From: a virus
Lineage: Duplodnaviria > Caudoviricetes
Virus record (IMG/VR): IMGVR_UViG_3300037067_016086
Location: 25,816 to 89,815 of that record
Length of the DNA stretch: 64,000 nt
Direction: 5' to 3' (one strand)
Shown here in pieces: positions 25,680-63,644 of this stretch; the first letter of the stretch is position 1; the number at the start of each line of letters is the position of its first letter. A program made the position numbers and the translations under genes. The notes under the pieces were generated by a model. That model saw nothing but the letters and a program-made list of their open reading frames with translations. It ran no database searches and was not told the origin of the DNA.

Positions 25680-25816
25680 CAGCCTGCACACCTGGCCACC
25701 GTGGCGCCCACGAGGAATGCGATCAGGAAGATCGCGGACCAGCGGTACGCCAGCTCGCGGCCGCGCTCCTCCTCGGCCTCGTACGGCAACTGAAGTGGCT
25801 CACGATCACGCAGCAT
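25676..25816 (-). CDS. small membrane protein
   Basis: 46 aa, helix WSAIFLIAFLVGATVA; stop lies in the TTGACA box. Confidence 0.55.
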   Translation of the reverse strand: MLRDREPLQLPYEAEEERGRELAYRWSAIFLIAFLVGATVARCAGC

Positions 25817-32270: not shown

Positions 32271-32353
32271 CTACAGAACCAGCTCCTGCTGGCCCATCTC
32301 GCGCAGGACTTCCCGGATGTCCCGTCCATCGATCCCGTCTCCAACGGTCACCC
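32271..32353 (-). pseudogene. displaced original C-terminus of the MT-A70 methyltransferase
   Basis: VTVGDGIDGRDIREVLREMGQQELVL* vs active TTIGLGVTGNDIRVDIENLTDQKSLHV*. Confidence 0.8.
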
Positions 32354-32953
32354 CTACCAGACGGTCCGCATCCAATCCACGACACGCTGCAATTCGTCAG
32401 GATTCGAATCTCTTTTCAAATTGTTACAACGCCAACAGACAAGGGCGATGTTTCCCACTACATATCCTTTTTCCAAATGTATCCTATCCAAGCTCGGAGA
32501 ATCATTTCGCTTCCTGCCGTCATGTTTATATGCAACATCAAATTCACGACCACAACACGCGCAATTCCTCTGTGACATCAGCCAGTCTGTCAAATATGCA
32601 ATCGTGAACACGTCTGCATCGAACTGAATTCCGTGCTCCGAACTCCGGATTTGCATGCCACCCCTCATCACAGTGGCGCGAGCATGGAAAGGATCTCTAT
32701 CCTGCTTGATGCGTGCTTGTTCTCGTCTCTTGGGAAGTTCCAATTCTCGACGCTCTGCCCACAAGGCCCTACGTCTTTCCTTGTATGGTTCCCCCTTCTT
32801 CGCCTTCCACTCCCGATGATATTTTCGCCTGCAAACGCGACAAACCCCACTTATTCCATTTCTACAGTCGGGGCTAGGAGTAAAAAAATCCAACGTCTCC
32901 GGTTTCGCTTCCCCGCACTTGCTACACCTTCGCATTCCCTGTTCGCCCGGCAT
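32354..32953 (-). CDS. HNH-like homing endonuclease
   Basis: CSKC..C zinc finger; CACC, SPSLDRI...GYVVGNIALVCWRCNNLK; AT-rich. Confidence 0.85.
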   Translation of the reverse strand: MPGEQGMRRCSKCGEAKPETLDFFTPSPDCRNGISGVCRVCRRKYHREWKAKKGEPYKERRRALWAERRELELPKRREQARIKQDRDPFHARATVMRGGMQIRSSEHGIQFDADVFTIAYLTDWLMSQRNCACCGREFDVAYKHDGRKRNDSPSLDRIHLEKGYVVGNIALVCWRCNNLKRDSNPDELQRVVDWMRTVW

Positions 32954-32989
32954 GCCTAACATCATGGTCCTGTAAATCCGATCGGTCAA

Positions 32990-33532
32990 CTAGACATGCA
33001 GGGATTTCTGATCGGTCAAATTCTCAATATCCACACGAATATCATTCCCGGTAACGCCCAATCCTATGGTCGTCCATCCCGGACGCGTGGCGCGCGCGAA
33101 CAGCTCCAGGCGCCGCGTGCCAGCCATCAGATCCTCGATCTCGCGGTACACCTCGTCCGGCTTCTGCGAGTGCTCGCGCACTTTGGCCTGCACGATCTGG
33201 TGCACACCCGCGCTCGCTCGCTTCGGGCTGCCGCGCACTCCCAGCAGGACCAGCTCCGCGTTGGCCCGCGTGTAGCTGCCCATGCCCCAGTGCAGCTTGC
33301 CGTTGGTCGTGCGCTTTTCCCAAACGAACGCGACCGTTTTGTACTTGAACCCGTACGCCGCCATGACGCGCAGCGCCACGTCGATCTGCGGACACGTGGC
33401 CCACAGGAAGAGCGCGCAGTCCGGAGCGGCCAGCTTGCCCACCGGCAATGCCGCGATGTCGTCCGCGGTCATGGTCTTGTAGTGGAACCCTGCTCCGCGC
33501 TCTCCAGCCTGCTGCTTGTCCGAATAGGCCAT
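32990..33532 (-). CDS. MT-A70-family adenine methyltransferase core lacking the DPPW motif in frame
   Basis: HYKTM..DIAALPV, LFLWAT, W.K, G.YTR.N.E..L.G..G, HSQKP, LELFAR. Confidence 0.9.
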   Translation of the reverse strand: MAYSDKQQAGERGAGFHYKTMTADDIAALPVGKLAAPDCALFLWATCPQIDVALRVMAAYGFKYKTVAFVWEKRTTNGKLHWGMGSYTRANAELVLLGVRGSPKRASAGVHQIVQAKVREHSQKPDEVYREIEDLMAGTRRLELFARATRPGWTTIGLGVTGNDIRVDIENLTDQKSLHV

Positions 33533-33576
33533 CAGGACCACGGTGGGTCGGCGCAAATCACGTCGTATCTACCCAC
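33532..33576 (-). CDS. 14-codon replacement MTase N-terminus carrying DPPW
   Basis: GAGGA RBS, GTG GGT AGA TAC GAC GTG ATT TGC GCC GAC CCA CCG TGG TCC TGA; TGATG overlap with the core ORF. Confidence 0.75.
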   Translation of the reverse strand: MGRYDVICADPPWS

Positions 33577-34243
33577 CGTGGTACCATCCTCGCTTTGTCG
33601 CATATCCCTGAACCAACCTTTCGAAATCCTCTTCACCCAGGGAACTTTTCGCCCAGTTGTACCAATTGCAAACCACATGAACATTCGAACGGACGTATCC
33701 GCGCGTAGAGTCGATCCGATCAAGGCTTGCAGTAAAAGGCTCCCGATACGGTTGCCCCGTATGAAGCCGACGAAGCGCAATGCCCGTCGAGTCACAACAA
33801 AAATCATTCTTTTCCATGAGGGAAAAAACAAACACTTTGTCGATGTCGAATTCCATTCCAGACTTCCTAGCACGATACCGAGATCTACGAACCATATCGG
33901 CTGCGATGCCACGCCAAGAATTCCGGTAAACATCAACACCACTCTGTTCGCATGGACGACAAACACTCCCCAGATAATTCTCGGATTTGTTTTCGATGAG
34001 CTTGTGCCGCATTCGAAATTGGGATCGATCCTTGATCGCCCCACACACTAAGCACTTTTTCAGTCTATCAACTCCGAGTTTCTCCCGCATGGCACGCAGC
34101 CCACCCATGGACTGCTGCATCACGCCCAGCATCCCTATCAGGTTCCTCTTTCGGAAGATGCTCACCGGCGGAATCAGCCCAAACTCATCGATAAGTTTGC
34201 GCAATTCCAATTCCACCGACTCCGATGTCCACTTCTTTTTCAT
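33569..34243 (-). CDS. HNH-like homing endonuclease
   Basis: CLVC..CRPC; SLDRIDSTRGYVRSNVHVVCNWYNWAK; AT-rich. Confidence 0.85.
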   Translation of the reverse strand: MKKKWTSESVELELRKLIDEFGLIPPVSIFRKRNLIGMLGVMQQSMGGLRAMREKLGVDRLKKCLVCGAIKDRSQFRMRHKLIENKSENYLGSVCRPCEQSGVDVYRNSWRGIAADMVRRSRYRARKSGMEFDIDKVFVFSLMEKNDFCCDSTGIALRRLHTGQPYREPFTASLDRIDSTRGYVRSNVHVVCNWYNWAKSSLGEEDFERLVQGYATKRGWYHGG

Positions 34244-34250
34244 GATCCCA

Positions 34251-34319
34251 TCATACCAGAATTCCATTTGTCGTCAAGGTCCACGGAGGGTCCATCGCGA
34301 TGACGTCGAATCCGCTCAT
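34251..34319 (-). pseudogene. displaced original N-terminus of the MT-A70 methyltransferase
   Basis: ATGA-coupled MSGFDVIAMDPPW then TLTTNGILV* read through the cassette promoter. Confidence 0.9.
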
Positions 34320-34561
34320 CGATCCACCCCCTGGACCACCAGGGTCACCTGGAGCCGGTAGTCGTTGTCGGGATGCTTCTCGTAGAAGTCCATCTCGCGG
34401 ATGCTGTTGGAGCTGGCACCGTGCGGGCCCGCCTCGTCCTGCGAAACCATGATGTCGGAGAGCCGAACCAGACGCTGATCATAGAGCGCCTTGGAGGCGT
34501 CCAGAATCTGCTTGACCAGAGCGTCCCGCGTAGCACGCTGCGCCACCGACATCTTCGCCAT
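34316..34561 (-). CDS. hypothetical protein
   Basis: ORF MAKMSVAQ. Confidence 0.6.
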   Translation of the reverse strand: MAKMSVAQRATRDALVKQILDASKALYDQRLVRLSDIMVSQDEAGPHGASSNSIREMDFYEKHPDNDYRLQVTLVVQGVDR

Positions 34562-34588
34562 CTGATAGCCGCCTCTGCCTGCCATGCC

Positions 34589-36439
34589 TCACTCCTCGTC
34601 TAGCCCGTCTTGAACAACACCAGCTACCAAGTCCAGGTTCGCTTTATCGCTCCACGCTGGAGCATTCTCCGGCAGCAGAGCGCCACCGGAAAGGCGCTCG
34701 ATGAGCGTCAGGATGCGGCGCGCCACCGCCTCTGCCTGATCCTTCCGCTCCTCCGCCGTTTCTGGTTCATCCCCTACAATCCCATGAAACTGCGCCGACT
34801 TCAACCCGAGCACGTCCATCATGACCTGATCGTACCCCGTGTTCGACACGCAGTAGTAGCTCTGCACCTCGGTCATATCATCGGGAGCGCCCACGCGCGC
34901 GATGCGCGTTTCGCACTGTCCATGCACGGCCGGGGCCCAGTCCAGCTCCGCCATCACCGAGCAGGTTGCCCGTGTCTGAAGTCCGTCGAGTCCAGCCGCG
35001 GTGCGCAGAGAGAGATCGGCGACCAGGGCATCTCCGTCGATGAACCGATCCAGCGCGGCGTCCTTCTGCTTCTCCGTCTCGCGACCCGTGAGAACCGAGA
35101 TCTTGAAGTCCGCGAGCTTGTCGATGAGGATGTCGTGCACGTCGTGATGCCAGGCGAACACCAGCGGTCTCTCCCCGGCCGCGATCAGTGACGCCACGAA
35201 AGCAGCCACAGCGGGCGCCTTGCACACCCCCGCAGCATGACGCGATCTCCGGTCGATGTCCCGCGCCACCCTCCCGCGGTTGAACCACTCCAAACCCTTG
35301 TACCCGCGAGCCTGCTCTACCGCCGCCTCCATCATCTTGGCGTGGAGCCCCTCGTCGTGCTCCAAGTCCTGCACGTGTCGGACCACGCGCGGCATCTGCG
35401 GCCGCACCTCGGTCCAACGCCGCCGCAGCAGCAGGCCCTCCCGCCGCAGGTAGTCGCCGAGCACGTCCGGTTGCGCTACCACCTTGTTCCCGTACCCCGT
35501 ACACCACTCCCGAGAGAAGGCCTCCGCGGAGCCCAAGCAGTTGAAGTCGAGGGCGTTCGTCACCGACCAGATCTCCGTGCCGTACCCGTAGATCGGCGTC
35601 CCGGACAGACCCCACACGCTCGTCGAATCGGAGGACAGCAAGGATGCTGCCGAGTACTTGCCCGTTCCTGTGTGCCGTAGCTCCTGCACCTCGTCGAAGA
35701 TCGTCACCGGGAACCCGTGCTTCAGCAGCGCGTTCTTCCACGGCGCCAGCAGCCCGTAGTGGATGATCGCGAAGGGAGTCTTGGGGATCTCGTACGGCGT
35801 GGTCGTCCGCAGGATCGGCGCGAGGACCGCCCCGCGGCGCTTCGCGAACTTCCAGTCGGACTCCCCCTCGCGCTGCGGCTCCGTACCTGGCATGTCGAAC
35901 AGCGCGCCGATCATGCGCTGCCACTGCCGCTGCACCTGCGTCTGCACGACCACCAGCACCGGGTACTTGCCCAGCGCCGCCGCGGCAGCCAGCGCCGTCC
36001 AGGTCTTGCCCAGCCCCATGCCATCCGCAAGGATCGTGCGCTCGTTGGCGAGCAGGAAACCGACGCCCTCCTCCTGGTAGGGGAACAGCTTGCCCACGAA
36101 CTCTGAGGGAGGCCGCACCGCCGAGATGTCGGCGTTCGTCGATCGCCGCACCGCGTGCTCGATCGCGACCGCCCGGGCTGTTGCCAGAGCGTCGTCGCAC
36201 TGCACGTCCAGCGGGTAGCGCAGCAGAAACCAGTTCAGGTCCTCGGCCACGCGCCGCGTGTTGTGGAACGCCAGGTACTTGCGGTTGACGTTGGCCCCCG
36301 GGAACAGGCGCCGGGCCGCCTCCATCATCGCGGGCTCCCCGGCGATGCAGAACCGGCGGTTGTCCTCGTCGTAGACCAGGGTGCCGTACCGGTGTCCGGC
36401 CAGCGAAGGTACTACCAGGTGGTCCGGGGTATAGCTCAC
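34589..36439 (-). CDS. SNF2-family helicase
   Basis: ILADGMGLGKT, IFDEVQ, LSGTP, LVFAWH, GLDGLQ, Q...R..R. Confidence 0.92.
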   Translation of the reverse strand: MSYTPDHLVVPSLAGHRYGTLVYDEDNRRFCIAGEPAMMEAARRLFPGANVNRKYLAFHNTRRVAEDLNWFLLRYPLDVQCDDALATARAVAIEHAVRRSTNADISAVRPPSEFVGKLFPYQEEGVGFLLANERTILADGMGLGKTWTALAAAAALGKYPVLVVVQTQVQRQWQRMIGALFDMPGTEPQREGESDWKFAKRRGAVLAPILRTTTPYEIPKTPFAIIHYGLLAPWKNALLKHGFPVTIFDEVQELRHTGTGKYSAASLLSSDSTSVWGLSGTPIYGYGTEIWSVTNALDFNCLGSAEAFSREWCTGYGNKVVAQPDVLGDYLRREGLLLRRRWTEVRPQMPRVVRHVQDLEHDEGLHAKMMEAAVEQARGYKGLEWFNRGRVARDIDRRSRHAAGVCKAPAVAAFVASLIAAGERPLVFAWHHDVHDILIDKLADFKISVLTGRETEKQKDAALDRFIDGDALVADLSLRTAAGLDGLQTRATCSVMAELDWAPAVHGQCETRIARVGAPDDMTEVQSYYCVSNTGYDQVMMDVLGLKSAQFHGIVGDEPETAEERKDQAEAVARRILTLIERLSGGALLPENAPAWSDKANLDLVAGVVQDGLDEE

Positions 36440-36451
36440 GTCACGATCCCC
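36440..36451 (-). repeat. 12-bp direct repeat, right of TnpB cassette
   Basis: GGGGATCGTGAC, identical to 37884-37895. Confidence 0.85.
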
Positions 36452-36600
36452 GTTCTCCAAAACTTACCCACCTATCCACGACTGGCATCGATGGAGTTTG
36501 GTTCCTGCCCAATCGGGAGTTTCGTCCGCCTCTTTCGAGACGAGCCAGCGCTCCCAAGGCGACAGGCTGTCGCGGCCGAACTGGCCGCCCAATTCTCTAG
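36450..36600 (-). ncRNA. probable omegaRNA (reRNA) scaffold overlapping the tnpB 3' end
   Basis: position typical for TnpB guides; hairpins GGCCAGTTCGGCC and GACAGCCTGTC; boundaries approximate. Confidence 0.55.
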
Positions 36601-37659
36601 AACCTTCGCTGCGTTCTCGTCCCGGTCATGGACCACCCCGCAAGAAGGGCAGTCCCACTCTCTGACGGACAGCGGCAGATCCTCCATCACGTACCCGCAA
36701 TCGCTACATTCCTTCGAGGATGGTTTGAACCGCGGGTAGACCACGACATCGGAACCACACATCAGCGCCTTGTACGTGAGCTGCCTCCGAAACTCAAAGA
36801 ATCCCATGTCTGCAATTGCCCGAGATAGACGCTGGTTCTTCGCCATCCCGCGCACATTCAGATCCTCGATGACGATCACATCGAACCGCTGCACTAGATT
36901 CGTCGTCAACTTGTGCAAGGCGTCCGTGCGAATGTCCGCAATCTTCTCGTGCACTCGCGCCAACCTCACCTTCGCCTTGGCCCGGTTCTTCGATCCATTC
37001 CGCTTCCTGCTCACCGCCTTGTTCAGCATGCGCAACCGCTCCAACGCCGCTCGCAACGGCCTCGGTCCATCGATGTGCTCACCTGTAGACAGAGTAGCCA
37101 GATGTGTAATGCCGAGATCCACCCCGACCGTGCCGTGGTTCTTGTGCACGATCGGAACGTCCTCGACCTCCACCAACACACTCACGTACCACCGTTGAGC
37201 ACGTCGCGATACCGTCGCCGAAAGAAGACGACCCTCAAACCGTAACTCCTCCCGCATCCGGACCCACCCGATGCGGGGAAGGCGAATCCTCCTGCCCTCT
37301 ATTCGGAACAATCCAGGAGTATTGTCAGACGCCAAAAACGAGTCATGGATACCTTTTTTCTTGAATCGTGGGTATCGAGTCCGCTTCTTGAAAAATGCTC
37401 CGAACGCATCCCCCAAATTCTGGATTGCACACTGCGGAACCGTCTTGCTAACCTCACACAGCCACGGGAACTGTTCCCGCTTGATAGCATTCAATTTCCG
37501 ACGCAACATGCTTTCATTCGGTTTCTCGCCCGCCACATACAACTGCTTCCAATTTTCCAATGCCCAGTTATAGGCGAACCGAGCACATCCCGCTGCCTTT
37601 GAGAATTCCATCTTCTGCCGATTCGTAGGGTCCAGCGCGATTTTATGAGCGCGAATCAC
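36472..37659 (-). CDS. tnpB: TnpB RNA-guided endonuclease
   Basis: AHKIALDP..GCARFAYN, VGVDLG, IEDLNV, PSSK.CS.CG..CP.CG, DRDENAA (RuvC D-E-D intact). Confidence 0.95.
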   Translation of the reverse strand: MIRAHKIALDPTNRQKMEFSKAAGCARFAYNWALENWKQLYVAGEKPNESMLRRKLNAIKREQFPWLCEVSKTVPQCAIQNLGDAFGAFFKKRTRYPRFKKKGIHDSFLASDNTPGLFRIEGRRIRLPRIGWVRMREELRFEGRLLSATVSRRAQRWYVSVLVEVEDVPIVHKNHGTVGVDLGITHLATLSTGEHIDGPRPLRAALERLRMLNKAVSRKRNGSKNRAKAKVRLARVHEKIADIRTDALHKLTTNLVQRFDVIVIEDLNVRGMAKNQRLSRAIADMGFFEFRRQLTYKALMCGSDVVVYPRFKPSSKECSDCGYVMEDLPLSVREWDCPSCGVVHDRDENAAKVLENWAASSAATACRLGSAGSSRKRRTKLPIGQEPNSIDASRG

Positions 37660-37820
37660 GAAACGCCCGCCTCCCGCATGACCAGATCCACCGCATCCCG
37701 CAGCACCTGCGACATGGACGCGCCTCGTCGTTCGGACTCCCCCCGCAACCACGCCATCTGCCGCTCCGTCAGGATGAACCGCGTCGGGACCTTGGGTTGC
37801 TTTTTCTTATTGTCCTTCAT
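37656..37820 (-). CDS. ribbon-helix-helix (CopG-like) regulator
   Basis: TRFILT...L...SERRGASMSQVLRDAVD; GTGA-coupled to tnpB. Confidence 0.7.
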   Translation of the reverse strand: MKDNKKKQPKVPTRFILTERQMAWLRGESERRGASMSQVLRDAVDLVMREAGVS

Positions 37821-37827
37821 CGTGCCT

Positions 37828-37856
37828 ACTGTATGCCAATTCTTGGCAAATTTCAA
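37828..37856 (-). promoter_or_regulatory. cassette promoter with internal inverted repeat (leaderless geometry)
   Basis: TTGAAA-N17-TACAGT-N7-ATG; TGCCAA-GAA-TTGGCA in the spacer. Confidence 0.7.
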
Positions 37857-37879
37857 CACCAAAATACTCAATCGAAAAA

Positions 37880-38254
37880 TTAAGTCACGATCCCCCAGTT
37901 GGTCGCCAGCGATACCACCCGCACCGGCTTTCCGTGGGCCCCGGCGGGCGTGTGGATGAGGTTGCGCTCCAGGACCAGTACCACGGCGGACACCTTGGGC
38001 GAGGCGGCGTAGCGGGCCACCTGGGCCTCCACGCGACCGGTGTGCTGCTTCCCGCGCTTCACCTCGATCGCCACACCGCCGTCGCACAGGAAGTCCACCC
38101 GGCACCGCGGACGGAGCTTGACCTCGTGCTCGTGCTTGATGCCCGCGCGATCGAGAGCCTCTCCGATGTCCCGGTGGATGTGTTGCTCGGACACCGTGGC
38201 GTGCAGCCGCAGGTTGCCGAGAGCGGCCACGATCCTGTCCAGAAGTTCCTGCAC
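37880..38254 (-). CDS. PD-(D/E)XK nuclease-fold protein
   Basis: SE..I...I..AL..., RVDFL...AIEVK, Q..RY. Confidence 0.7.
   Translation of the reverse strand: MQELLDRIVAALGNLRLHATVSEQHIHRDIGEALDRAGIKHEHEVKLRPRCRVDFLCDGGVAIEVKRGKQHTGRVEAQVARYAASPKVSAVVLVLERNLIHTPAGAHGKPVRVVSLATNWGIVT
37884..37895 (-). repeat. 12-bp direct repeat, left of TnpB cassette
   Basis: GGGGATCGTGAC. Confidence 0.85.
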
Positions 38255-38256
38255 CG

Positions 38257-39216
38257 CTACCTCAGAGACCGATCCTGCCAGGCGCGGACGCGCGACATCA
38301 CGAGCGCCTCGATCTCCTCGATGCGGGGGTGCGCCGGGAGCGTCGTCTGCTCGAACGCCCGACGCGCTTCCTCCACCAGCCGGTCCGCCCACTCCTGGAT
38401 CTGCTCCAGCTCGTACCTGCCCTGCTTGATGTCCACGATCTCCTGCGCGTACGGCAGCGGGAACACCAGGCGCCCGTACCGCATGAGGTCGATGCCCTCC
38501 TTGAGCAGGTGGATCACGTTGCTCGCGAACTTCGTGTCGTAGCCGTACTTCGTGAACAGCGCCGACCGGTGCGTGGCCTTGCTGAGCCGCTCCTCGATCA
38601 TCTTGCACGCCTTCTTGGCGTACACGCCCGGCTCGAAGTAGAGGTCGCCCACCCGCAGGTGCTTGCCCTTCTCGGGCTCCCCGACGAACAGCCGGTTGTC
38701 CCGGAACTCTCCCAGCACCGCGTGCGGGTCCTGAACCTTCAAGAACTCCAGCGCCCCCTGGAGCGCCGCGTAGTTCTCTGGCTTGATCCGCATCTTGTGG
38801 CGCTGCCCGTCCGCGTACTTCACGAAGCGGTGATGGCCGCCCTTGTGCGGGAACAGGTGCGCGTGGTTCAGCAGGTCGCGCCCGAAGTTCTTGGGCTCGT
38901 CGAGCAGCACGTTTTCGTCGTTGGCGAACAGCAGGTGCATGATGTTCGGGTTGTTCTCCATCGCGAGCTTGATGAAGAAGCGGTACTCGTAGTACGTGCA
39001 GTCCACCGCATCAGCCGTGTTGCGCCCGCTCTCGTCCTTGGCGGCCACGTCCTCTTTCAGCGTCTCGCACTTGGCAAACCCGTAGACCATCTGCGGCGCG
39101 GGCATGAAGATACCCGTGAGGTCCAGGTCGCTCTCCGGCGTGTTCGTGCCGAACAGGTGCGACCCGCACCGGATCTTCAGGACCAGGTTGTCCTTCACGA
39201 TCTTCTCGTAGTTCAT
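38257..39216 (-). CDS. DNA polymerase beta-superfamily nucleotidyltransferase (RlaP-like)
   Basis: GSHLFGTNTPESDLD.TGI, NPNI...LF, YDTK. Confidence 0.8.
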   Translation of the reverse strand: MNYEKIVKDNLVLKIRCGSHLFGTNTPESDLDLTGIFMPAPQMVYGFAKCETLKEDVAAKDESGRNTADAVDCTYYEYRFFIKLAMENNPNIMHLLFANDENVLLDEPKNFGRDLLNHAHLFPHKGGHHRFVKYADGQRHKMRIKPENYAALQGALEFLKVQDPHAVLGEFRDNRLFVGEPEKGKHLRVGDLYFEPGVYAKKACKMIEERLSKATHRSALFTKYGYDTKFASNVIHLLKEGIDLMRYGRLVFPLPYAQEIVDIKQGRYELEQIQEWADRLVEEARRAFEQTTLPAHPRIEEIEALVMSRVRAWQDRSLR

Positions 39217-40046
39217 GCGTCCCTCCCCGTGATCGGCGGGAATTCCCGCGGCCACACATGCTGCGACATCACCTTGATCACGCTGTCCTTGACGAACAGC
39301 GGCACGCCATGGTCCGCACACCACTCCCTGATGCGATGGGCCGTGTGGATGGGATAGAGCGGACGCGTGCCAGCCCCCGTCTGGAAGCCCATCACCACCC
39401 AGTCCAATCCCGCCAGGCAGGCCGGGTCGAACGCCGGGTCCAGCAGCGGCTCCACGCTCGCCCAGAGCTTCCCAGGCCGGGTCCCCCACCGCAGCATCGC
39501 GTCATCGCGCACGCGGGCCAGCAGCGCCCCAGCGCGCCAGCTCGACGCGTTGTCCGTCAAGCTCACGCCGAGGTGCATGCTCTGCGGCCACATGATCCCG
39601 GCCGCCAGCAGGTCCGGACGCTTCGTCAGCGCCAGCACCGTGTGCCCCCGATCCGCGATCTCGGCCGCGAAGTGCGCCGTCTGCGCCTGCACCTGATCGG
39701 ACAAGATCCGGGCTCCGCCGGACCAGTCGAGGGCCAACGCCTCTCCCTCGAAGCACATGTCGCCCATGCTTCCCACGAAGATCCGCTTCGGCTTCCGCGA
39801 CCACGTGAAGCGCATCATCTCGCGCTCGTACACGCTGGCGTGGAAGGCAGGCGCAAAGGGATCGCCCCCGCTGGTTGGGATGTGCGGGTTGCCGCCCGTC
39901 AGCGCCGCCACCACGTTGTACGCCGTTCCATCCACGTGGCCGAGCCGCCACGCCATGCGCCGGGCATAGCAAAACTCGCACCCCTGACGGCATCCCGTGA
40001 AGAAGTTGATCGTCTCATCACACCAGTCGATGCGGGTCCGCGCCAT
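39213..40046 (-). CDS. DUF5131 (Gp37/Gp68-like) radical-SAM-related protein
   Basis: T.IDWCD.T.N..TGC..GC..CYA, IFVGSMGD, LTKRP, SVEPL, LFVK. Confidence 0.85.
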   Translation of the reverse strand: MARTRIDWCDETINFFTGCRQGCEFCYARRMAWRLGHVDGTAYNVVAALTGGNPHIPTSGGDPFAPAFHASVYEREMMRFTWSRKPKRIFVGSMGDMCFEGEALALDWSGGARILSDQVQAQTAHFAAEIADRGHTVLALTKRPDLLAAGIMWPQSMHLGVSLTDNASSWRAGALLARVRDDAMLRWGTRPGKLWASVEPLLDPAFDPACLAGLDWVVMGFQTGAGTRPLYPIHTAHRIREWCADHGVPLFVKDSVIKVMSQHVWPREFPPITGRDA

Positions 40047-40050
40047 CCTG

Positions 40051-40266
40051 TCACCCGTTCAGCGGCGCATCCGTCTTCAGGATGCACTTCCCGTTCTTCG
40101 GATCGCGGCCGCGGATCTCGCACTCCAGCAGCCACAGCATCTTCGTGTACTTCGCCGTCTCGCCCGTGTTGCTCCAGCAGCACATCAGCGCGATGAACGG
40201 CATGATCGCGATCAGCACGCCCACCAGGAAAACGATGATCCCGAATCCCAAACCGATGCCTTCCAT
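40051..40266 (-). CDS. small membrane protein
   Basis: long hydrophobic helix. Confidence 0.6.
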   Translation of the reverse strand: MEGIGLGFGIIVFLVGVLIAIMPFIALMCCWSNTGETAKYTKMLWLLECEIRGRDPKNGKCILKTDAPLNG

Positions 40267-40296
40267 AACCCACTCCCTCTCGCGCTATGCGCGTGT

Positions 40297-40863
40297 TTAC
40301 AGCCGAGCTGCCAGCCACTTGATCGCGACCTGCGACTCCGGCGTGACGATGCCGCCCTTGCGCACGATCGCGGCAGCCTTCGTCAGCCACTCTCCCGCGA
40401 ATGCCAGGTCGTCTTCGGTCAGGTTGTACGATCCCAGCTTCTTGACGATCGACGACGGCGTCGGGCACTTCCCGGTGAACCAGTACACCATCTCCATGGA
40501 CGCCCGGTAGCACTCGCACTCCGACAGCGTGCGCTTCGAGCTGTCCAGGCAGTAGTCCCACGCGAAGTCCGCGCTGTGGAACTGCCGCACGTGGGCGTGC
40601 TCGTGCACACACACGATCGCCTGCGAGGCCAGCGGCACCCAGGACGGATCGCCCACCGAGAAGTTCGGGTAGATGCCGTGCCCCAGCGTGATCGTGAAGT
40701 CGCGCAGGAACTTCTTCCGGTCCATGATGCCCATGGCCGCCAGAACGACGCCGATGATCTGCATCTCGGGCGCCGTCTTGTCCTTCACGGTGGTCCCGTA
40801 CTTCCGGCACATGTACCGCCAGAATGCGTTCGTCTGATCGCCAGTGATCGTGTGCGTCGTCAT
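40297..40863 (-). CDS. putative zinc metallopeptidase
   Basis: VHEHAHV.Q (HExxH) and downstream E.E.Y. Confidence 0.6.
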   Translation of the reverse strand: MTTHTITGDQTNAFWRYMCRKYGTTVKDKTAPEMQIIGVVLAAMGIMDRKKFLRDFTITLGHGIYPNFSVGDPSWVPLASQAIVCVHEHAHVRQFHSADFAWDYCLDSSKRTLSECECYRASMEMVYWFTGKCPTPSSIVKKLGSYNLTEDDLAFAGEWLTKAAAIVRKGGIVTPESQVAIKWLAARL

Positions 40864-41255
40864 CTCGTTCCTCCCTGGTACTCCGCCCCCTTGGGGTAGC
40901 TCTTTCGGCAGGCCAGGCGTCCCCGCTGCACCTCGTCCTGCGCCCGGCTGACCGAAGCCTCCGCCTTCGCCTCGAACGGCTCGCCCTCCACCACGTCGAG
41001 CCACTCGAACGCCCAGAACCCGCCGCAGGCCTCCGCCAGCTTCGCGTCGCAGGCTCCCATGCTCTGCACCTGAAGATCCAGAGCGGATTGAAGCAACTGC
41101 GCCTCGACCCGCGCCTCATCCCGATCGACCTCCGCGTTCAGCCACATCACCGTCGTCGCGATGAACCCGACGAGCATGACGATCACGGACACCGCCGTCA
41201 TGATCCGCTGCGTCCAGGTTAACCGGCGCTGCTCTTTGGCGTGATCGTACATCAT
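40860..41255 (-). CDS. membrane-anchored coiled-coil protein
   Basis: TM helix then coiled coil; ATGA-coupled to the ligase remnant. Confidence 0.6.
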   Translation of the reverse strand: MMYDHAKEQRRLTWTQRIMTAVSVIVMLVGFIATTVMWLNAEVDRDEARVEAQLLQSALDLQVQSMGACDAKLAEACGGFWAFEWLDVVEGEPFEAKAEASVSRAQDEVQRGRLACRKSYPKGAEYQGGTR

Positions 41256-41398
41256 ACGCTCTCCGTGTTCTTGGCGCAGTTGGCCTGCTTTCCCTTCTTC
41301 TTGCGCTCCAGGTAGTCCACGCTGACCAGCTTGAGGATCACCCGCCCGCACTCCGGATCGCGCCGCGGCGTCAGCGGCTTCACGACGCAGCCCTCGCG
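41252..41398 (-). pseudogene. displaced original C-terminus of the RNA ligase
   Basis: REGCVVKPLTPRRDPECGRVILKLVSVDYL... 28/30 identical to the active end at 43922-44023. Confidence 0.95.
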
Positions 41399-41400
41399 TT

Positions 41401-41964
41401 TCAAGATTTCCTCTTGTGGTCTGCAACCAGCGTACACCATTCCACAAACTCCTCTTCCGTGTAGTCCTGCTTCATGTTGTTCACGATCTTGTGGACCCAC
41501 TGCACATTCGACAGGACATAGGGCAAATTGCTATCCTTGCGATCCAGGGATGCCGTCTGCATTGCTTTTCTATCCCGATACGCACGCACGAATCTCAACG
41601 GAATCCCAGTCAGCGCACACTTCCTGTCTTGTTGCAAAAACAGGTTCCACGCCTCTTCCATCGTGAGATCGAAAACGAGATCCCGCACCACAGCATTGTA
41701 CCGAAGTCCGTACCAATAAGAACCACTGATCTCGCCGAATCCAGAAAATTGCTTATTGGGTAGACGCTTACGACATCCACACGACTGCGTCTGCCCAAAT
41801 CGCAAACTTGCCCCTCTCACCTCTGTAAGGTTCCCACACTCGCACAGACATTTCCAGACGCACTGTTTGCCCTTCCGATCCGGACACAACTCCAAAACGG
41901 TCAGGGACCCGAACACCTGCCCCTTCAGGTCTATGCGATTGTGTGCTGGATGTCGGCACTTCAT
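41401..41964 (-). CDS. HNH-like homing endonuclease
   Basis: FG.LTV..W.C.CECG..SCGC; CALTG; SLDRKDSN.PY...NVQWVHK.VN.MK; AT-rich. Confidence 0.85.
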   Translation of the reverse strand: MKCRHPAHNRIDLKGQVFGSLTVLELCPDRKGKQCVWKCLCECGNLTEVRGASLRFGQTQSCGCRKRLPNKQFSGFGEISGSYWYGLRYNAVVRDLVFDLTMEEAWNLFLQQDRKCALTGIPLRFVRAYRDRKAMQTASLDRKDSNLPYVLSNVQWVHKIVNNMKQDYTEEEFVEWCTLVADHKRKS

Positions 41965-41978
41965 GGGAACGACACTTC

Positions 41979-42353
41979 CTACTTGGACAACTTGATCTTC
42001 GGCGATTTCCTATTCTTGATGAACGTCTTGACTATGGGACGCTCCCGCTGCTGCGCATCCAACTGCGCCTCCCCGACATCCGCGATCTGCTGCGCCAGGA
42101 CCAGCGCCCCGCAGGTCGACAACTCCAACCGGTGCATCACTTCGTTCGCGTCCTCGTACGACAGATGGACCGTGTTGACCCCCGCCGCCTCGACGAACAT
42201 CTTTCCTTCGACCGGCTCGCATATCAGGATGCCCACGGCCCGGCGCTCGGAGATCGCCTCCCCCAGCTTCTTCATCACCTCGTCCAACTCCGCCTTCGCC
42301 TCCGGATGCACCCGGACCGCCTTCTTCCCCGTAGCCATCATCAACCTCCTCAT
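41979..42353 (-). CDS. hypothetical cargo protein
   Basis: ORF inside the ligase cassette. Confidence 0.6.
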   Translation of the reverse strand: MRRLMMATGKKAVRVHPEAKAELDEVMKKLGEAISERRAVGILICEPVEGKMFVEAAGVNTVHLSYEDANEVMHRLELSTCGALVLAQQIADVGEAQLDAQQRERPIVKTFIKNRKSPKIKLSK

Positions 42354-43708
42354 GTTCTCAGAAGCGCCACGGCATCCTCCGATGACGCCTCGTACCCTGC
42401 CTTGTACCCCGCCGCGTACCCCGCATCGGCCGCGGCATCCTCCTTGGCGTCACCGCTGGCCGTGTCGAGGGTCCACAGCCTCGCCCGATTCCGCGTCTCC
42501 AGCGCGAACTCCTGCGACTGAATCCGCTGGCGCAGGTGCGCCTTCACCGCCTCGTCGCGCTTGACTTGGACCTTCGCATCGTCGAGCTGCATCGCGTATT
42601 CTCCGGCCCGACGTTCCAAACCATCGGAGCGCCCACGTTCATCAAACAAAAGTCTCTCATGTATCCCTACAAGCTCCCGCGCCACTGCGAGTTCAACTTC
42701 GAGTCGCTTGTTCTCTGCTACAAGTCTTGACCGATCAGCATTTGCCTTCGTCGTCGCTTCTGCGGCTTCGGCTACGCTAATCGAGAACAGCGGCTGTCCG
42801 ACATTAGCTATCTCGTCGCGTATCGCTGCTCGCCATGACTCCTTCGAGACGTCATCGAGAACGTCCCAGTGCATCCTCGGATCGGACGCGGCCACGAACA
42901 GCGCGGATGCCGCCTGTTCCACTCGTTTCGCGTAGTCGGCAAGCTGTTCCTGAATCACCGCGTCCGTGTGCTCCCCCAACCGTTCCGCCGCTGCGGCCAT
43001 GGCCTCTGGTTTGTCGAGTCCGTAGAACGCCAGGGCAGTAGCCTGGTCGGCATCGTCGTTCGGCTCGTTGCACTCGCATACGGCATGGTTATGACCGTTC
43101 TCATGTCCTACCGGAAGAGTACATCTGTCGCCATGTGGGCAGGTGGATTTGCAACGTCCACTGAATGGGTCTTCCCAACCACGTCGAATAGCATAATTGG
43201 AAGGGTCAAATGATATATCTTGCGTGTCGCTCACGGGGAAAGAAAAACCGTGCCTCGCGACGGTTTCACATATCTCCCTTCTCGCTTCCGAAAGTCGCAT
43301 CGAGTATCCGTGGGATTTTCGCTCCATGACATCGAACCGTTCCTGCTCGTCCAGAATCCTCTTCTCGTAGATCTTTTCACGCTTCCGTGCCGCCGCGAGC
43401 CTGCTCGCTATGGCTGCCCGCTCTTTGCGCGCGCAAGGAAGGCACATCCTCTCGTCGTTGCCCGCATCGTAGGTCCTGGATTCCAGCCCGCAACGGCAGC
43501 AAGTTCCGATGGGCAGGAGCAGATCGAACACGCGCAGGCTGCTCTGGTCGGAATCGCACGCCGGGAATCGCCTCCGGTACTCCTCGACGGTCATGTCCAA
43601 CTTCGCCGCTCTGTTCTTCTCCGTGTTGCAATCGGGGCACAGGCCGGGGAATGCCTCCGGATCGTCGGCATCGAAATGATGGCTGCAAATTGTGCATTCG
43701 TCGCTCAT
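42350..43708 (-). CDS. 452-aa Cys-rich/coiled-coil cargo protein
   Basis: several CxxC pairs, C-x5-C-x-LP-x-GH motif, coiled coil; mosaic GC. Confidence 0.6.
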   Translation of the reverse strand: MSDECTICSHHFDADDPEAFPGLCPDCNTEKNRAAKLDMTVEEYRRRFPACDSDQSSLRVFDLLLPIGTCCRCGLESRTYDAGNDERMCLPCARKERAAIASRLAAARKREKIYEKRILDEQERFDVMERKSHGYSMRLSEARREICETVARHGFSFPVSDTQDISFDPSNYAIRRGWEDPFSGRCKSTCPHGDRCTLPVGHENGHNHAVCECNEPNDDADQATALAFYGLDKPEAMAAAAERLGEHTDAVIQEQLADYAKRVEQAASALFVAASDPRMHWDVLDDVSKESWRAAIRDEIANVGQPLFSISVAEAAEATTKANADRSRLVAENKRLEVELAVARELVGIHERLLFDERGRSDGLERRAGEYAMQLDDAKVQVKRDEAVKAHLRQRIQSQEFALETRNRARLWTLDTASGDAKEDAAADAGYAAGYKAGYEASSEDAVALLRT

Positions 43709-43878
43709 TGCGCACTCTCATCCTTCGACCTTGTCGCGATCTCGCTTTTCTTCTTCTTCCGGCGGTCCTTATCCCAGTACGGGGACTTGCAATGTGGGCA
43801 GATCCGCACCTCCTCCTGCTTCGGTATCCAGACATGCCCGCACCGCTTGCACTCCAACCTCGTGATCTCTACCTTCAT
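43705..43878 (-). CDS. small zinc-ribbon protein
   Basis: CKRCGHVW...CPHCKS.YW. Confidence 0.7.
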   Translation of the reverse strand: MKVEITRLECKRCGHVWIPKQEEVRICPHCKSPYWDKDRRKKKKSEIATRSKDESAQ

Positions 43879-43885
43879 ACCTGTA

Positions 43886-43914
43886 GGTATACCCTTGACG
43901 GTGTTACTCGTCAA
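43886..43914 (-). promoter_or_regulatory. cassette promoter (leaderless geometry) with inverted repeat
   Basis: TTGACG-N17-TATACC-N7-ATG; TTGACG-N8-CGTCAA. Confidence 0.7.
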
Positions 43915-43921
43915 GCGGAAA

Positions 43922-44893
43922 TTACCGCCTCTTCAGGTAGTCCACCGAAACCAATTTCAACTTGACTCGCCCACATTCCGGGTCCCTTCGAGGGGTGAGC
44001 GGGGAGACGACGCAGCCCTCACGGATGTTGTCCGCCCCCGGGATCGTGGAGTTGCCATCCGCCAGCATGGCCAGCTCGGGCGACCAGGCTCCGACGAACA
44101 GGAGCGGCGCCGTCGGCAGACCCAGGTCCGCGAAGATCGCGCGGGCCGTCACGGGAGGCAGCCACTCGCCGCCGTGCCGGATGTCGTAGAAGGCCAGCCG
44201 CAGCCCGAACTTGCTCCGGTCGATGCCGTAGTGGTAGCCCTTCACGGAGCCGTACAGCTCGCCGTAGAACACGTGGTCCGGGTAGCGCGCCAGCTTCTCC
44301 TCCAGTCCGAGATCGTCCGCGGCCCGCCACCAGGCCACTCGTGGGTCCCGGATCTTCCACCGCGTGTGCGACCCCGCGTGCAGCGCGCCGTCCACGAACA
44401 CGAACCGGGAGTTCTCCCCGTTGATCTTCTCGGAGATCTCCACCGGCTCGCCCGGCTTGATGATCTCGCTGAAGCGCCGCATCGACTCCACGTCGTAGTG
44501 CACCGCGTCGACCTTGGGCGCCGGAGCATCCAGGCCGTCGCCGCTCGGCGGCGGCTCCCAGTGCGTGCATCCCAGCTCCACCATCACGTCGTCGCCCTCT
44601 TTCCAGCCGGGACGCGCCTTGATGAGCAGTCCGAACGACTGCACGCCGCGCAGCCGCTTCGCCGAGATCCGCTTCATGCCGTCCTTGGCCTGGTCCGCCA
44701 GGAACGCGAACTCGGGCTGCGCCACCGGGACCATCGTATCGGGCTCGACGAACGCCGCGAGATCGCCGACGTGGAAGTCGCCGATGCGCGCGCACGAGGT
44801 GTAACCCCACACGTGAACCACTTCCAAAGAATCCGCGTCGGGATGTTTGTCGATCTGACCGATTCGAACCACCTTCACCGCGTGCTGGCTCAT
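43922..44893 (-). CDS. ATP-dependent RNA ligase (Rnl2/DRB0094-like, with N-terminal OB-like domain)
   Basis: HPDADSLE, EKINGEN (KxxG), YGE, FYD, REGCVV, K.K. Confidence 0.9.
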   Translation of the reverse strand: MSQHAVKVVRIGQIDKHPDADSLEVVHVWGYTSCARIGDFHVGDLAAFVEPDTMVPVAQPEFAFLADQAKDGMKRISAKRLRGVQSFGLLIKARPGWKEGDDVMVELGCTHWEPPPSGDGLDAPAPKVDAVHYDVESMRRFSEIIKPGEPVEISEKINGENSRFVFVDGALHAGSHTRWKIRDPRVAWWRAADDLGLEEKLARYPDHVFYGELYGSVKGYHYGIDRSKFGLRLAFYDIRHGGEWLPPVTARAIFADLGLPTAPLLFVGAWSPELAMLADGNSTIPGADNIREGCVVSPLTPRRDPECGRVKLKLVSVDYLKRR

Positions 44894-45153: not shown

Positions 45154-45401
45154 GGCGCACCTCCTTCCGTCCCGGAATCGGGCGGCGCGCACTCCGTGGT
45201 CAGCATGCAGTTGTAGCCGCCTGCCGGGTCCGCGCAGCACGCGAACGCCGCGCCCTCGATCTCGGAGCAGTCCGCGATCAGCTCCCACTCGCCGCCCGAG
45301 CTGCACATCTCGGCGCGATCCCCGCTGCACCGCGTCTCGTTCTGCGCGCACTCCTCGCAGGCGCCCAGCAGGAACGCCAACACCACCAGTACCTTGATCA
45401 T
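45150..45401 (-). CDS. Cys-rich lipoprotein
   Basis: lipobox LLGAC; C...ETRCSG....C...G.W....C. Confidence 0.7.
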   Translation of the reverse strand: MIKVLVVLAFLLGACEECAQNETRCSGDRAEMCSSGGEWELIADCSEIEGAAFACCADPAGGYNCMLTTECAPPDSGTEGGAP

Positions 45402-45958
45402 GGGTTCTCCTCTCCGTCCGGCCCCACGAGCAGCCTCAGCTCCTCGCGGCGCTCCGACTCGGTCATCTGATGCGGCGGCCCATCCGCCTCCTCGGCGAGA
45501 TTGTCCGCGGCGTCGCCGTCCAGGTACGACTGCTCGCACTCATCTAGCGACCCGGCGGGCAACTCCGGCCCCGGCTGCAACTGGCACGCGTCCCGCGCGC
45601 ACACCCCGAGCCGATCGGAGAGCTGGTTCATCACCTCGTGGTACGCCTGCGCATCGCTCGCCCACTCGCTGCACCGCGTCCCCCTGTACCAGGCCACACC
45701 GAATGCGTGCGCCTGCTCGGTGGGAGACAGCCACCCACCCTCGATCCGCGACCCCTTGTGGCACACCAGAGCCCGCGCGTACTCCTGGCACTTCGACACC
45801 TCGCGCTCTGACAGCGTCGAGTTGTCCATGCAGTCCTTCCAGATGCGGTGATACGCATCCTCGCGCTCCAGGCATTCGGGCGGCAGCTGGTTCTCGGACT
45901 CGTCGTCACCGCAGCCCACGAGCATCAGCGCCACCAGGATCATCATCCCAACCCTCAT
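45398..45958 (-). CDS. lipoprotein
   Basis: lipobox LVGC followed by GDD; GGAGG RBS. Confidence 0.75.
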   Translation of the reverse strand: MRVGMMILVALMLVGCGDDESENQLPPECLEREDAYHRIWKDCMDNSTLSEREVSKCQEYARALVCHKGSRIEGGWLSPTEQAHAFGVAWYRGTRCSEWASDAQAYHEVMNQLSDRLGVCARDACQLQPGPELPAGSLDECEQSYLDGDAADNLAEEADGPPHQMTESERREELRLLVGPDGEENP

Positions 45959-45980
45959 CGCTATCCTCCTCGTCTCGAAG

Positions 45981-45996
45981 GCGAACACGTGTTCGC
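45981..45996. promoter_or_regulatory. 16-bp palindrome copy (perfect)
   Basis: GCGAACACGTGTTCGC, 9 nt downstream of tRNA-Val. Confidence 0.85.
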
Positions 45997-46005
45997 TCTC
46001 CCCTG

Positions 46006-46079
46006 TGTGCCCGACTGGACTCGAACCAATGACCTCAACCTTGTCACGGTTGCGCTCTAACCAACTGAGCTACGGGCAC
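46006..46079 (-). tRNA. tRNA-Val(GAC), no encoded CCA
   Basis: cloverleaf GTGCCCG..CAACC-GTGACAA-GGTTG..TTCGAGT..CGGGCAC-A, followed by CAG. Confidence 0.95.
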
Positions 46080-46086
46080 AACACCT

Positions 46087-46284
46087 TCATTCCATCTCCC
46101 TGACCATCCCGCAGCGTCTGCACCGCGGTTCGCCGTCGATCTCAACCCACACGTGATGCCCCTCGACCGCCGCCGACGCGCCGCCGATCACGACCACCTC
46201 GCGTCGGCAGGACCGGTCCAACCGGCTCAGAGCCGCGTGCAGCGTGCACGCGTACCACAACCTGAACTCGTCGAGAGCACTCAT
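46087..46284 (-). CDS. hypothetical protein
   Basis: ORF between promoter and tRNA; CRRCG. Confidence 0.5.
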   Translation of the reverse strand: MSALDEFRLWYACTLHAALSRLDRSCRREVVVIGGASAAVEGHHVWVEIDGEPRCRRCGMVREME

Positions 46285-46333
46285 CGCGAAACCCTTTTCA
46301 TCTCCGGTATCGCACCGGGAACCAAGCTCTCGG

Positions 46334-46418: not shown

Positions 46419-46459
46419 GACAATTTTGCATTTCCGCCGATATGTCATATGATGTGTCA

Positions 46460-46918
46460 ATGATTAAACCTACTGAAAAAACATGCACAAAATGTGGTTC
46501 CAAGGGACCGTTCTACTTCAACAAGTCGATGGGCTGCTACCGTAGCCGGTGCATCAAATGCCACAATGAAAGTAGCCGCGATTGGGCGAAAAAGAATCCG
46601 GAACGGAGGCGCCAAATTGGAAAGAAACACGACAACAAAAGACATAAGTTCAAGAGAATTTTCGAAAAGTACAAACTCACAGAATCCGAATTTGACAAGA
46701 TGATGGAACGACAAGGATTCAAGTGCTGCATTTGCAAACGCACACTCGATCGCAAAAGCCGACACACTGTCGTGGATCACTGCCACAAAACGAACCGTGT
46801 TCGCGGCATCCTTTGTCGAAACTGCAACACTGGGATCGGGCAATTTCAAGACAATCCAGTTCTGCTACTTCGAGCCATAGAGTACCTCACGGAATCAGCT
46901 TCCGATCCTTTGAAATAA
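46460..46918 (+). CDS. recombination endonuclease VII-like homing endonuclease
   Basis: Q...CCIC....VVDHCHKTNRVRGILCRNCNTGIG; AT-rich; opposite strand. Confidence 0.9.
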   Translation: MIKPTEKTCTKCGSKGPFYFNKSMGCYRSRCIKCHNESSRDWAKKNPERRRQIGKKHDNKRHKFKRIFEKYKLTESEFDKMMERQGFKCCICKRTLDRKSRHTVVDHCHKTNRVRGILCRNCNTGIGQFQDNPVLLLRAIEYLTESASDPLK

Positions 46919-47918
46919 TTTCCTTGCATATCTTAACAACCTCATCGCACCGCTCTTCCGAGAACTGCCCGATGTGGCACTGGGTCTTTGGGATTCCCAG
47001 TATCTGCGCCAGCTCCATGTACGCCTGCGTGCGCGTCATACGACCCTCTCGCCAGATCGAGTCGAAGGCGTCGTGCGCCCGGATGCGTGCGCGCCGCATG
47101 CCCTCGGTCGCCAGCACGCCCAGCGGGGTCTGTGTGCCCGCGTGGCACCCCACGTACGCGCATCCCTGGGGGCACCGCCAGAACATCTTCGCGTGCAGGT
47201 CCGGCCGGTACGGGTAGACGGCCGCACCGGTCACCAGCTCGGGCTTCTGCCCGCACACGGGACACGCGGTCGGGGGTGGAAGGCACGCGTCGTTGTCCCG
47301 CAACCGTTGGACGTTCTTGTTGCGCGCAGCCTCCGCTCCCCGGCGCCGCGGGCACACGGCCTTGTGCGCGACCATGGCAGCTCGGTTCGGCAGGACAGCC
47401 TTGCAGCGCGGGCACGTCACGCGTTGCGACGCCCTCCACATCTCGGTCTCAATCCGCGTCAGCATCGGTGTCGGGTCGAGCAGTTGCGGCGGCCGCGGTC
47501 CGTCGAGAGGCCACACCGAGCCGACCGCCCGGTAGCCCATCTCGTACAGCTCCAGGTGCAGCATGCTGAGGGGCTTGCCCTTGTCGTTCCGTAGAACGCG
47601 CATCACACGGCCGATCACGCTGCCCTCCTCGATGAACTCCCACTGCTCGCACTTCGTCTCGATCTCACCGTAGATGATCACGCCGCTGTCGCCCTCGACC
47701 ATGACGCATTCCGTGGGCAGCCACCAGGGACAGCCCGCCAGCGGACCCGTGAATGGCTCCACCCCCACCACGATGCCGTCCTCGATCGCCAGGACCGGCG
47801 TGCCCACCGATGCCACCAGGTCGACGCCCGTGTGCACGTCGAACTTGCGCCGGTTCCCGAAGGCCCCGTAGGCAGGCGGGCTGGGCACGAGCACAGGGTC
47901 GTACAGAGGGAAGCGCAT
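46887..47918 (-). CDS. M23 peptidase fused to zinc finger and DUF3268-like domain
   Basis: HTGVD...HLE (M23); CPRC..H..C; CPVCG..YVGCH..PLG.LA..R..AH..FD..W..CHIG.F. Confidence 0.75.
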   Translation of the reverse strand: MRFPLYDPVLVPSPPAYGAFGNRRKFDVHTGVDLVASVGTPVLAIEDGIVVGVEPFTGPLAGCPWWLPTECVMVEGDSGVIIYGEIETKCEQWEFIEEGSVIGRVMRVLRNDKGKPLSMLHLELYEMGYRAVGSVWPLDGPRPPQLLDPTPMLTRIETEMWRASQRVTCPRCKAVLPNRAAMVAHKAVCPRRRGAEAARNKNVQRLRDNDACLPPPTACPVCGQKPELVTGAAVYPYRPDLHAKMFWRCPQGCAYVGCHAGTQTPLGVLATEGMRRARIRAHDAFDSIWREGRMTRTQAYMELAQILGIPKTQCHIGQFSEERCDEVVKICKEIISKDRKLIP

Positions 47919-63616: not shown

Positions 63617-63644
63617 ATGTTAATGCCTGCGTTACGTTTGTCAA
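63617..63644 (-). promoter_or_regulatory. sigma70-type promoter
   Basis: TTGACA-N16-TAACAT. Confidence 0.7.

Follow-up and report, generated by a model that had tools for sequence, protein, structure and literature searches.

A TnpA-less, IS607-derived TnpB insert in a phage genome, probably an RNA-guided homing cassette with a minimal replacement gene end

The window analysed here is a stretch of 64,000 nucleotides (nt) of the 89.8-kb IMG/VR virus record IMGVR_UViG_3300037067_016086 (Duplodnaviria; Caudoviricetes; positions 25,816 to 89,815 of that record), which is estimated to be ~49% complete. Within the window, an insert carrying a tnpB gene and a small open reading frame (ORF) of the ribbon-helix-helix (RHH) type separates a phage gene encoding 124 amino acids (aa) from a gene for an SNF2-family helicase. 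Every feature of the locus lies on the minus strand, in the order 124-aa gene, insert, SNF2 gene:

37880..38254, minus strand: upstream phage gene, 124 aa, weak PD-(D/E)xK/Cas4-like similarity (phrog_5928), ending in ...NWGIVT and a stop codon
37880..37885, minus strand: ACT TAA, replacement Thr codon and stop of the upstream gene (ACG TGA in the native allele)
37884..37895, minus strand: left copy of the 12-nt direct repeat GGGGATCGTGAC (GG core and first 10 target nt), identical with the 12-nt overlap of two alignments to the related contig L139
36452..37883, minus strand: inserted DNA as compared with the empty allele, 1432 nt
37656..37820, minus strand: RHH-like ORF, 54 aa and stop, the stop overlapping the tnpB start (GTGA)
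36472..37659, minus strand: tnpB, 395 aa, GTG start, RuvC residues D181/E265/D347 and zinc finger intact
36440..36451, minus strand: right copy of the 12-nt direct repeat GGGGATCGTGAC, including the Shine-Dalgarno-like GGGGA for SNF2
34589..36439, minus strand: SNF2-family helicase gene, GTG start at 36439

The left junction (37900-37880) reads AAC TGG G/GG ATC GTG ACT TAA and the right junction reads ...GAGAACGG/GGATCGTGACGTGAGC (slashes mark the junctions), with the right end stopping at 36450 and the flank beginning at 36449. Comparison with a related phage contig (L139, 85-88% identical to the window) showed the locus without the insert. L139 aligns to the window at 34279-36451 and 37884-41398 and the two alignments overlap by 12 nt, indicating that the insert consists of 1432 nt plus one copy of the repeat. 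The junction in L139, GCGACCAACTGGGGGATCGTGACGTGAGCTAC, reads AAC TGG GGG ATC GTG ACG TGA GC and encodes NWGIVT followed by a stop codon that overlaps the GTG start of SNF2 (GTGA). In the filled allele, the 10 nt at the left end together with T TAA reproduce NWGIVT and its stop exactly, and the GGGGA ribosome-binding sequence and the GTG of SNF2 are retained on the native (right) copy. An in-register identity of 10 nt would arise by chance at ~4^-10 (~1e-6). The first-pass annotation, made from the sequence of the window, had given both junctions as read here and had reconstructed the uninterrupted site as TGG GGG ATC GTG ACG TGA with GTGA coupling to SNF2; L139 is a natural allele of exactly this form. 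The 10-nt copy of the right flank that it described as keeping WGIVT and the stop is likewise present, and the shared stretch is 12 nt when the GG core is counted.

The gene end at the junction belongs to a wider design. Homologues of the upstream gene end in NWG[IL][AT][LTI] and a stop, and distant homologues ending in NWGIAL or NWGLAT have the stop in an ATGA overlap. An exact-pattern scan for the reconstructed empty site gave a single match in metagenome contigs, namely L139, and the pattern was not found in the viral contigs scanned. A shorter 18-nt pattern of the empty site matched only an unrelated virus and was rejected as a chance match. Three contigs from other samples, those with comparable DNA, carry the filled allele at 100% identity, and a fourth contig from another sample has the gene order of the filled allele. 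A blastn search of the locus against deposited phages gave no match, and the record holds one copy of the element. The GC content of the insert is 0.47-0.63, below that of its flanks (0.63-0.72). Filled and empty alleles in related genomes, with the interrupted gene kept whole by sequence borne on the cassette, are the arrangement by which a homing cassette with a replacement gene end is recognized, and both features are present here. SNF2 homologues of related viral contigs are interrupted by insertions of ~1.0 kb (L046/L047:4521-5536) or ~0.8 kb (L048:3435-4240), each of which could be an intein, an intron or a nuclease cassette.

The tnpB product matches the Pfam domains HTH_OrfB, OrfB_IS605 (RuvC) and the zinc-ribbon TNB at 3e-31, 3e-19 and 6e-14, respectively. 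Matches to TnpB structures in the PDB range from 1e-64 to 1e-70, and the solved TnpBs align with it end to end. The segments GVDLG, IEDLN and HDRDENAA align to the catalytic motifs, and D181, E265 and D347 as well as both CxxC pairs are invariant among 34 homologues. A serine-recombinase gene is located directly upstream of tnpB in 51 of 94 relatives of 50-75% identity (IS607-type). No serine-recombinase TnpA adjoins the tnpB of the window, where the 54-aa RHH-like ORF takes that place, and a search of the 89.8-kb record for resolvase-type genes found none. The intact RuvC D-E-D triad, the lack of tnpA and the affinity to IS607, each of which had been proposed from the sequence alone, are borne out by the motif alignment with the 34 homologues, the gene content of the record and the gene neighbourhood of the relatives.

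Several relatives of this TnpB show arrangements of their own. The closest two (75% and 69% identity; L135:1-138, L137:about 2501-2600) also lack TnpA, and a small zinc-ribbon ORF (..KLKCKRCGH..) overlaps or directly precedes their tnpB start, at the position of the RHH-like ORF in the window. In a third locus (L134:2966-3001 and 4199-4210), ~34 nt lie between the upstream stop and the ATG of a 74%-identical TnpB, with no left end and no promoter. The left edge and right flank of this locus share GG+CAGA, and the locus may be another cassette that was truncated and has kept a short copy of its target; a search for the empty site of L134 found none. The tnpA of another IS607 relative (L005:2016-2914) is split by an insertion of ~900 nt with a 261-aa ORF bearing a LAGLIDADG-like GDGS motif, possibly an intron or a homing endonuclease.

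The right end of the element was defined by comparison with relatives, and the predicted RNA features adjoin it:

36450..36650, minus strand: omegaRNA scaffold, overlapping the 3' end of tnpB and ending in the conserved ...GTTTTGGAGAACGG
36430..36449, minus strand: predicted guide, the first 20 nt of the right flank, covering the stranded native gene end and the SNF2 start

Downstream of tnpB, 54 relatives share an end in ...GT(C/T)T......AACGG and diverge completely from the next base. The right end is therefore placed at 36450 and the start of the guide at 36449, the position that the first-pass annotation had assigned to it. An alignment of the last 210 nt of 36 sequences showed a consensus fold of 27 base pairs, 20 of which have compensatory changes. 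The terminal stem is formed by CCAAA/UUUGG in the window versus GUCAG/CUGAC in the others. An Rfam search with the omegaRNA matched no family. The predicted target beyond TGGG is GGATCGTGACGTGAGCTA. The empty allele of L139 presents TGGG followed by 18 contiguous guide matches (guide positions 1-18). In one relative (L129:2253-2264 and 3723-3734), a 12-nt fragment of the right-end motif (TTGGGTAGGTCT) also occurs 248 nt upstream of tnpB, suggesting the remnant of a second copy of the element.

The left end is built from the following parts, of which TGGG is the presumed target-adjacent motif (TAM):

37894..37897, minus strand: TGGG, presumed TAM, supplied by Trp-Gly codons (TGG GGN) that are conserved in the upstream gene; 26/26 relatives have GGG at this junction
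37861..37883, minus strand: AT-rich linker, 23 nt, 17% GC, not target sequence and not recognisable as an IS607 end
37828..37856, minus strand: promoter-like TTGAAA-17-TACAGT, laid out like the tnpA promoter that L002/L138/L141 carry within their left ends
37834..37848, minus strand: inverted repeat TGCCAA-GAA-TTGGCA (6+6 nt) in the promoter spacer, a weak candidate RHH operator, TGCCAAGAATTGGCA

GGG is present at the junction in all 26 relatives with a mappable left end. The left (CTGGG/GG..) and right (..AACGG/GG..) ends thus show a GG core at both junctions, a (T)GGG left flank and an xCGG right end. In the IS607 element of C. botulinum (CboTnpB), TGGG as target and TAM and xCGG as the means of self-discrimination were defined experimentally (10.1101/2023.11.20.567912), and ISXfa1 has a GGG TAM (PMC10711439). 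The TGGG-like TAM placed at the left flank in the first-pass annotation agrees with these motifs and is, as judged from sequence, the probable one.

Inside TGGG, the 10-nt target copy is followed by the linker and then, from about 37859 and ~35 nt inside, by a left-end-like segment consisting of TGTTGAAA, a 17-nt spacer, TACAGT, ~8 nt and ATG. After GGG, the left ends of the relatives are of the GTTTGAAC type or have a TTGACA promoter in the closest tnpA-bearing clade (L002/L140, L138, L141). A canonical IS607 left-end motif was not found at the junction of the window, and it is ambiguous where the IS607-derived part truly begins on the left. The left-end segment showed no similarity to the other cassettes of the same phage, and the promoter of the cassette is unlike the phage's own TTGACAAACGC promoters. 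The phage promoter-like motif, TTGACAAAC(G/A)C - 16-18 nt - TAxxxT, has at least 12 occurrences on one strand of the window, with minus-strand sites for example at 63644, 60999, 60496, 55668, 48789, 46362, 30003, 27387, 26460, 19964, 9076, 5469 and 378; the RHH promoter of the cassette falls outside this repeated class.

The 54-aa ORF is probably RHH-like. Its AF2 model (predicted local distance difference test score, pLDDT, 84) has two confident helices after an unstructured N terminus, and its best Foldseek matches are all RHH proteins (ParG, CopG, Arc, VapB, ParD; E ~1). The Pfam RHH_1 score of 12.5 bits (E 0.15) is below the cut-off of 20.5. Only two remote relatives were found among 1.8 billion representatives, and one of them, P0126 (E 1.4e-4), carries RHH_1/RHH_3 over the aligned part. 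The RHH gene that the first-pass annotation placed before tnpB is thus probably RHH-like, as judged from the Foldseek matches and the domains of P0126, with a sub-threshold RHH_1 score. Of the operator-like inverted repeat also claimed there, the repeat itself is real (37848-37834), but with 6+6 nt it is not significant alone; binding of the RHH-like protein at this site could provide autoregulation. The gene is nearly an orphan and is not conserved beside related TnpBs. In a viral contig (L013:2850-3008), a genuine RHH_3 ORF (24 bits), unrelated in sequence to that of the window, directly precedes a 46%-identical TnpB. The pairing of RHH with tnpB therefore arose more than once.

With a probability of roughly 60%, the insert is a TnpA-less IS607-derived TnpB/omegaRNA homing cassette with a minimal replacement gene end. 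Because the empty allele offers TGGG and 18 guide matches, the locus is best read in terms of RNA-guided homing between co-infecting phages. The RHH promoter would drive the RHH-like gene together with tnpB, whose translation would be coupled to that of the RHH-like gene. Folding of the transcript at its 3' end would form the omegaRNA scaffold, followed by a guide of 16-20 nt taken from the right flank. When related phages infect the same cell, TnpB-omegaRNA would cleave the uninterrupted allele at TGGG and the target, and repair of the cut by recombination with the filled genome would introduce the cassette there. The filled genome would be immune, since the cassette separates the TAM from the full target and the left junction offers only 10 matches. 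Homing by repair has been demonstrated for bacterial IS605/IS607 elements (10.1101/2023.11.20.567912), and homing has been demonstrated for protein homing endonucleases of phages. The foreign base composition and the foreign promoter type of the insert are consistent with such an origin. The cassette would be a clean case of RNA-guided homing, though not a fundamentally new one.

The 12-bp direct repeat would be a target duplication from a non-canonical insertion. In the preferred course of events, TnpB would have cut 15-21 nt into the target, the right side would have been repaired by homology and the left by end joining, leaving TAM-proximal target bases and a truncated, non-canonical left edge. 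Several points weigh against the homing interpretation. A single empty allele (L139) was found, and the identity profile of the flanks against L139 shows no co-conversion gradient. That 10 nt would be retained when the cut falls at 15-21 nt was fitted post hoc. The position of the left boundary is made ambiguous by the promoter segment that resembles a left end at about 37859, and with the record ~49% complete, a tnpA elsewhere or in the host could mobilise the element if its left end is functional.

The segment at about 37859 would be explained by a history in two steps, which is unlikely. An insertion of 35 nt with the duplication would have uncoupled the two genes (TAA, an AT-rich spacer and a second ribosome-binding copy), and a canonical IS607 derivative would then have inserted at TTGG/TGTTGAAA (~37859). 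From 37858 onward, the sequence does resemble the left end and tnpA promoter of L002, L138 and L141, with GGG/(N)TGTTGACA, a 17-nt spacer, a -10 box, ~8 nt and ATG. However, the similarity to L002 is ~54% over 37 nt and could reflect promoter constraint, the junction at ~37859 has GG only (TTGG) versus GGG in 26/26 relatives, and the predicted 35-nt intermediate allele was not found in scans of viral and metagenome contigs.

Comparison of the loci showed that the target copy is confined to this insertion. In a register-specific test of 51 loci, a copy of GG plus flank of at least 8 nt upstream occurred in the window only (null frequency 0.003-0.005), and none of the 50 other loci has a target copy at its left end. 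No right-flank prefix of at least 7 nt was found upstream in six close relatives, and a wide repeat scan gave only 10-14-mers at chance level. The IS607 rule of no duplication beyond the shared GG is thus broken here, the 12-nt direct repeat being confirmed against L139. The copy is best read as the scar of one particular insertion, kept by selection because the copy and T TAA preserve the upstream gene. The first-pass annotation had described a homing endonuclease using the "same repair logic". The outcome it described stands, as NWGIVT and its stop are preserved here, but with 0/50 other loci showing a copy, target copying is not a trait of the family, and the phrase describes the result at this locus rather than a shown mechanism.

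These results also bear on the idea that the TAM and 10-nt match at the left junction form a functional TnpB-omegaRNA site that is bound and not cut, acting as a roadblock to or regulator of read-through into the RHH promoter, or as a self-mark. The site has TGGG and a 10-nt perfect match followed by 7/10 mismatches, and is located ~28 nt upstream of the -35 box. Binding there is conceivable because a 10-nt guide lets the TnpB of ISDge10 bind without cutting; however, those experiments used 10-nt guides, not a full-length guide on a 10-nt partial target. As a design the bound site is not conserved, with no such copy in the 50 other loci, and preserving the upstream ORF is fully sufficient to account for the duplication, so that a function of this kind appears rather improbable. 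Still less credible is a fuller version, in which one guide might give a nuclease-competent TnpB two modes, cutting the empty allele of rivals on a full match and staying bound without cleavage at its own left junction, either to control transcription that reads through into the cassette or as a mark of the junction; we consider it very unlikely. If it were true, a two-mode TnpB would stand midway, as a naturally occurring form, between homing TnpB nucleases and RNA-guided repressors of the TldR type.

A domesticated module, in which RHH and TnpB form a toxin-antitoxin-like or competitor-killing (defence) pair that serves the phage and is not mobile, is quite improbable. An association of RHH/MazE with TnpB has been described and proposed as a toxin-antitoxin pair (PMC10691335), an unrelated true RHH precedes tnpB in L013, and the cassette is 100% identical in the three comparable contigs from other samples, with a fourth of the same gene order. 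However, the described RHH/MazE-TnpB clade is archaeal and has D changed to H in RuvC-III, whereas D347 is kept here and the nearest relatives are bacterial/phage IS607 TnpBs; the RHH has only two remote relatives, and the one with a readable context is not beside a TnpB. In addition, the guide is the element's own flank, which is the hallmark of selfish homing. A conventional IS607 insertion at the GG core, catalysed by TnpA acting in trans, with the 10-nt identity due to chance or to the duplication of another transposase, fits the GG at both junctions, the canonical right end and the frequency of TnpA-less derivatives (L003, L136), but is highly improbable given the ~1e-6 chance of an in-register 10-nt identity, the limitation of IS607 duplication to the shared GG (10.1101/2023.11.20.567912, PMC10711439), the missing canonical left-end motif at the junction and the absence of terminal inverted repeats on direct comparison of both ends, which also ruled out a DDE-type duplication.

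The insert is not the only cassette of this phage. The window has at least four further cassettes that are missing from L139, with insertions at 32333-33071, 33526-34279, 41398-43930 and 46420-46962 and a segment replaced at 45357-46309. A 94-nt stretch that codes for the C terminus of a ligase is present in duplicate at the flanks of the 41398/43930 cassette. One copy matches L139 at 90/94 nt, and the other is recoded at 67/94 nt and keeps 28/31 residues. A cassette together with a substitute gene end is thus a common arrangement in this phage genome.

Read as a homing cassette, the locus provides a natural pair of filled and empty alleles in related phages, with a predicted TAM within invariant Trp-Gly codons and an 18-nt guide match. 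It would thereby open RNA-guided homing to a direct test in co-infecting phages; such homing has to date been demonstrated only in E. coli, with elements of bacteria. The locus would further indicate that a TnpB cassette can take the layout of protein homing endonucleases that rescue the gene they interrupt, in a minimal form of 10 nt and a new stop. It is also a bacterial/phage example of an RHH-like gene that stands in place of the transposase beside a canonical TnpB.

Among known systems, the cassette closely resembles the IS607 TnpA(S)/TnpB/omegaRNA elements CboIStron (10.1101/2023.11.20.567912) and ISXfa1 (PMC10711439) in its right-end omegaRNA, the GG core at both junctions, the left (T)GGG as target motif and TAM, the xCGG right end for distinguishing self from non-self, the right-flank guide and the homing logic at the donor joint. 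Unlike them, it has neither tnpA nor a group I intron, carries an RHH gene in the place of tnpA, resides in a phage and has a non-canonical left end with a 10-nt target copy (12 nt with GG). IS1341-type TnpB-only elements (PMC10691335, PMC13565253) similarly lack a transposase and presumably persist via RNA-guided homing or mobilisation in trans. However, they belong to IS200/IS605, with hairpin ends and a TTGAT-type TAM, whereas the window cassette is of IS607 descent with an extra regulator gene. The RHH/MazE-TnpB clade (Altae-Tran et al. 2023, PMC10691335) also has a small RHH/AbrB-type gene directly upstream of tnpB, but is archaeal, has the D-to-H change in RuvC-III and is proposed to be a toxin-antitoxin system, in contrast to the canonical triad, the bacterial/phage IS607 setting and the sequence-unrelated RHH of the window.

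Free-standing homing endonuclease cassettes of phages and mitochondrial mobile ORFs (intronless homing; PMC13565253) share the layout of a nuclease cassette between an intact gene that has received a substitute end and the native end, now displaced, with an empty allele in a relative, and the same phage has protein-guided cassettes of such design. The nuclease of the window differs in being RNA-guided, its substituted end consists of 10 identical nt and T TAA and is not recoded, and immunity would come from the separation of the TAM and target. In TldR (nuclease-dead, with guides of ~9-11 nt; 10.1101/2023.11.30.569447), as at the left junction here, ~10 nt of complementarity beside a TAM would allow binding without cleavage. 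Whereas the RuvC of TldR is inactive and its targets are host promoters, the RuvC of the window TnpB is intact and the short match lies at its own junction.

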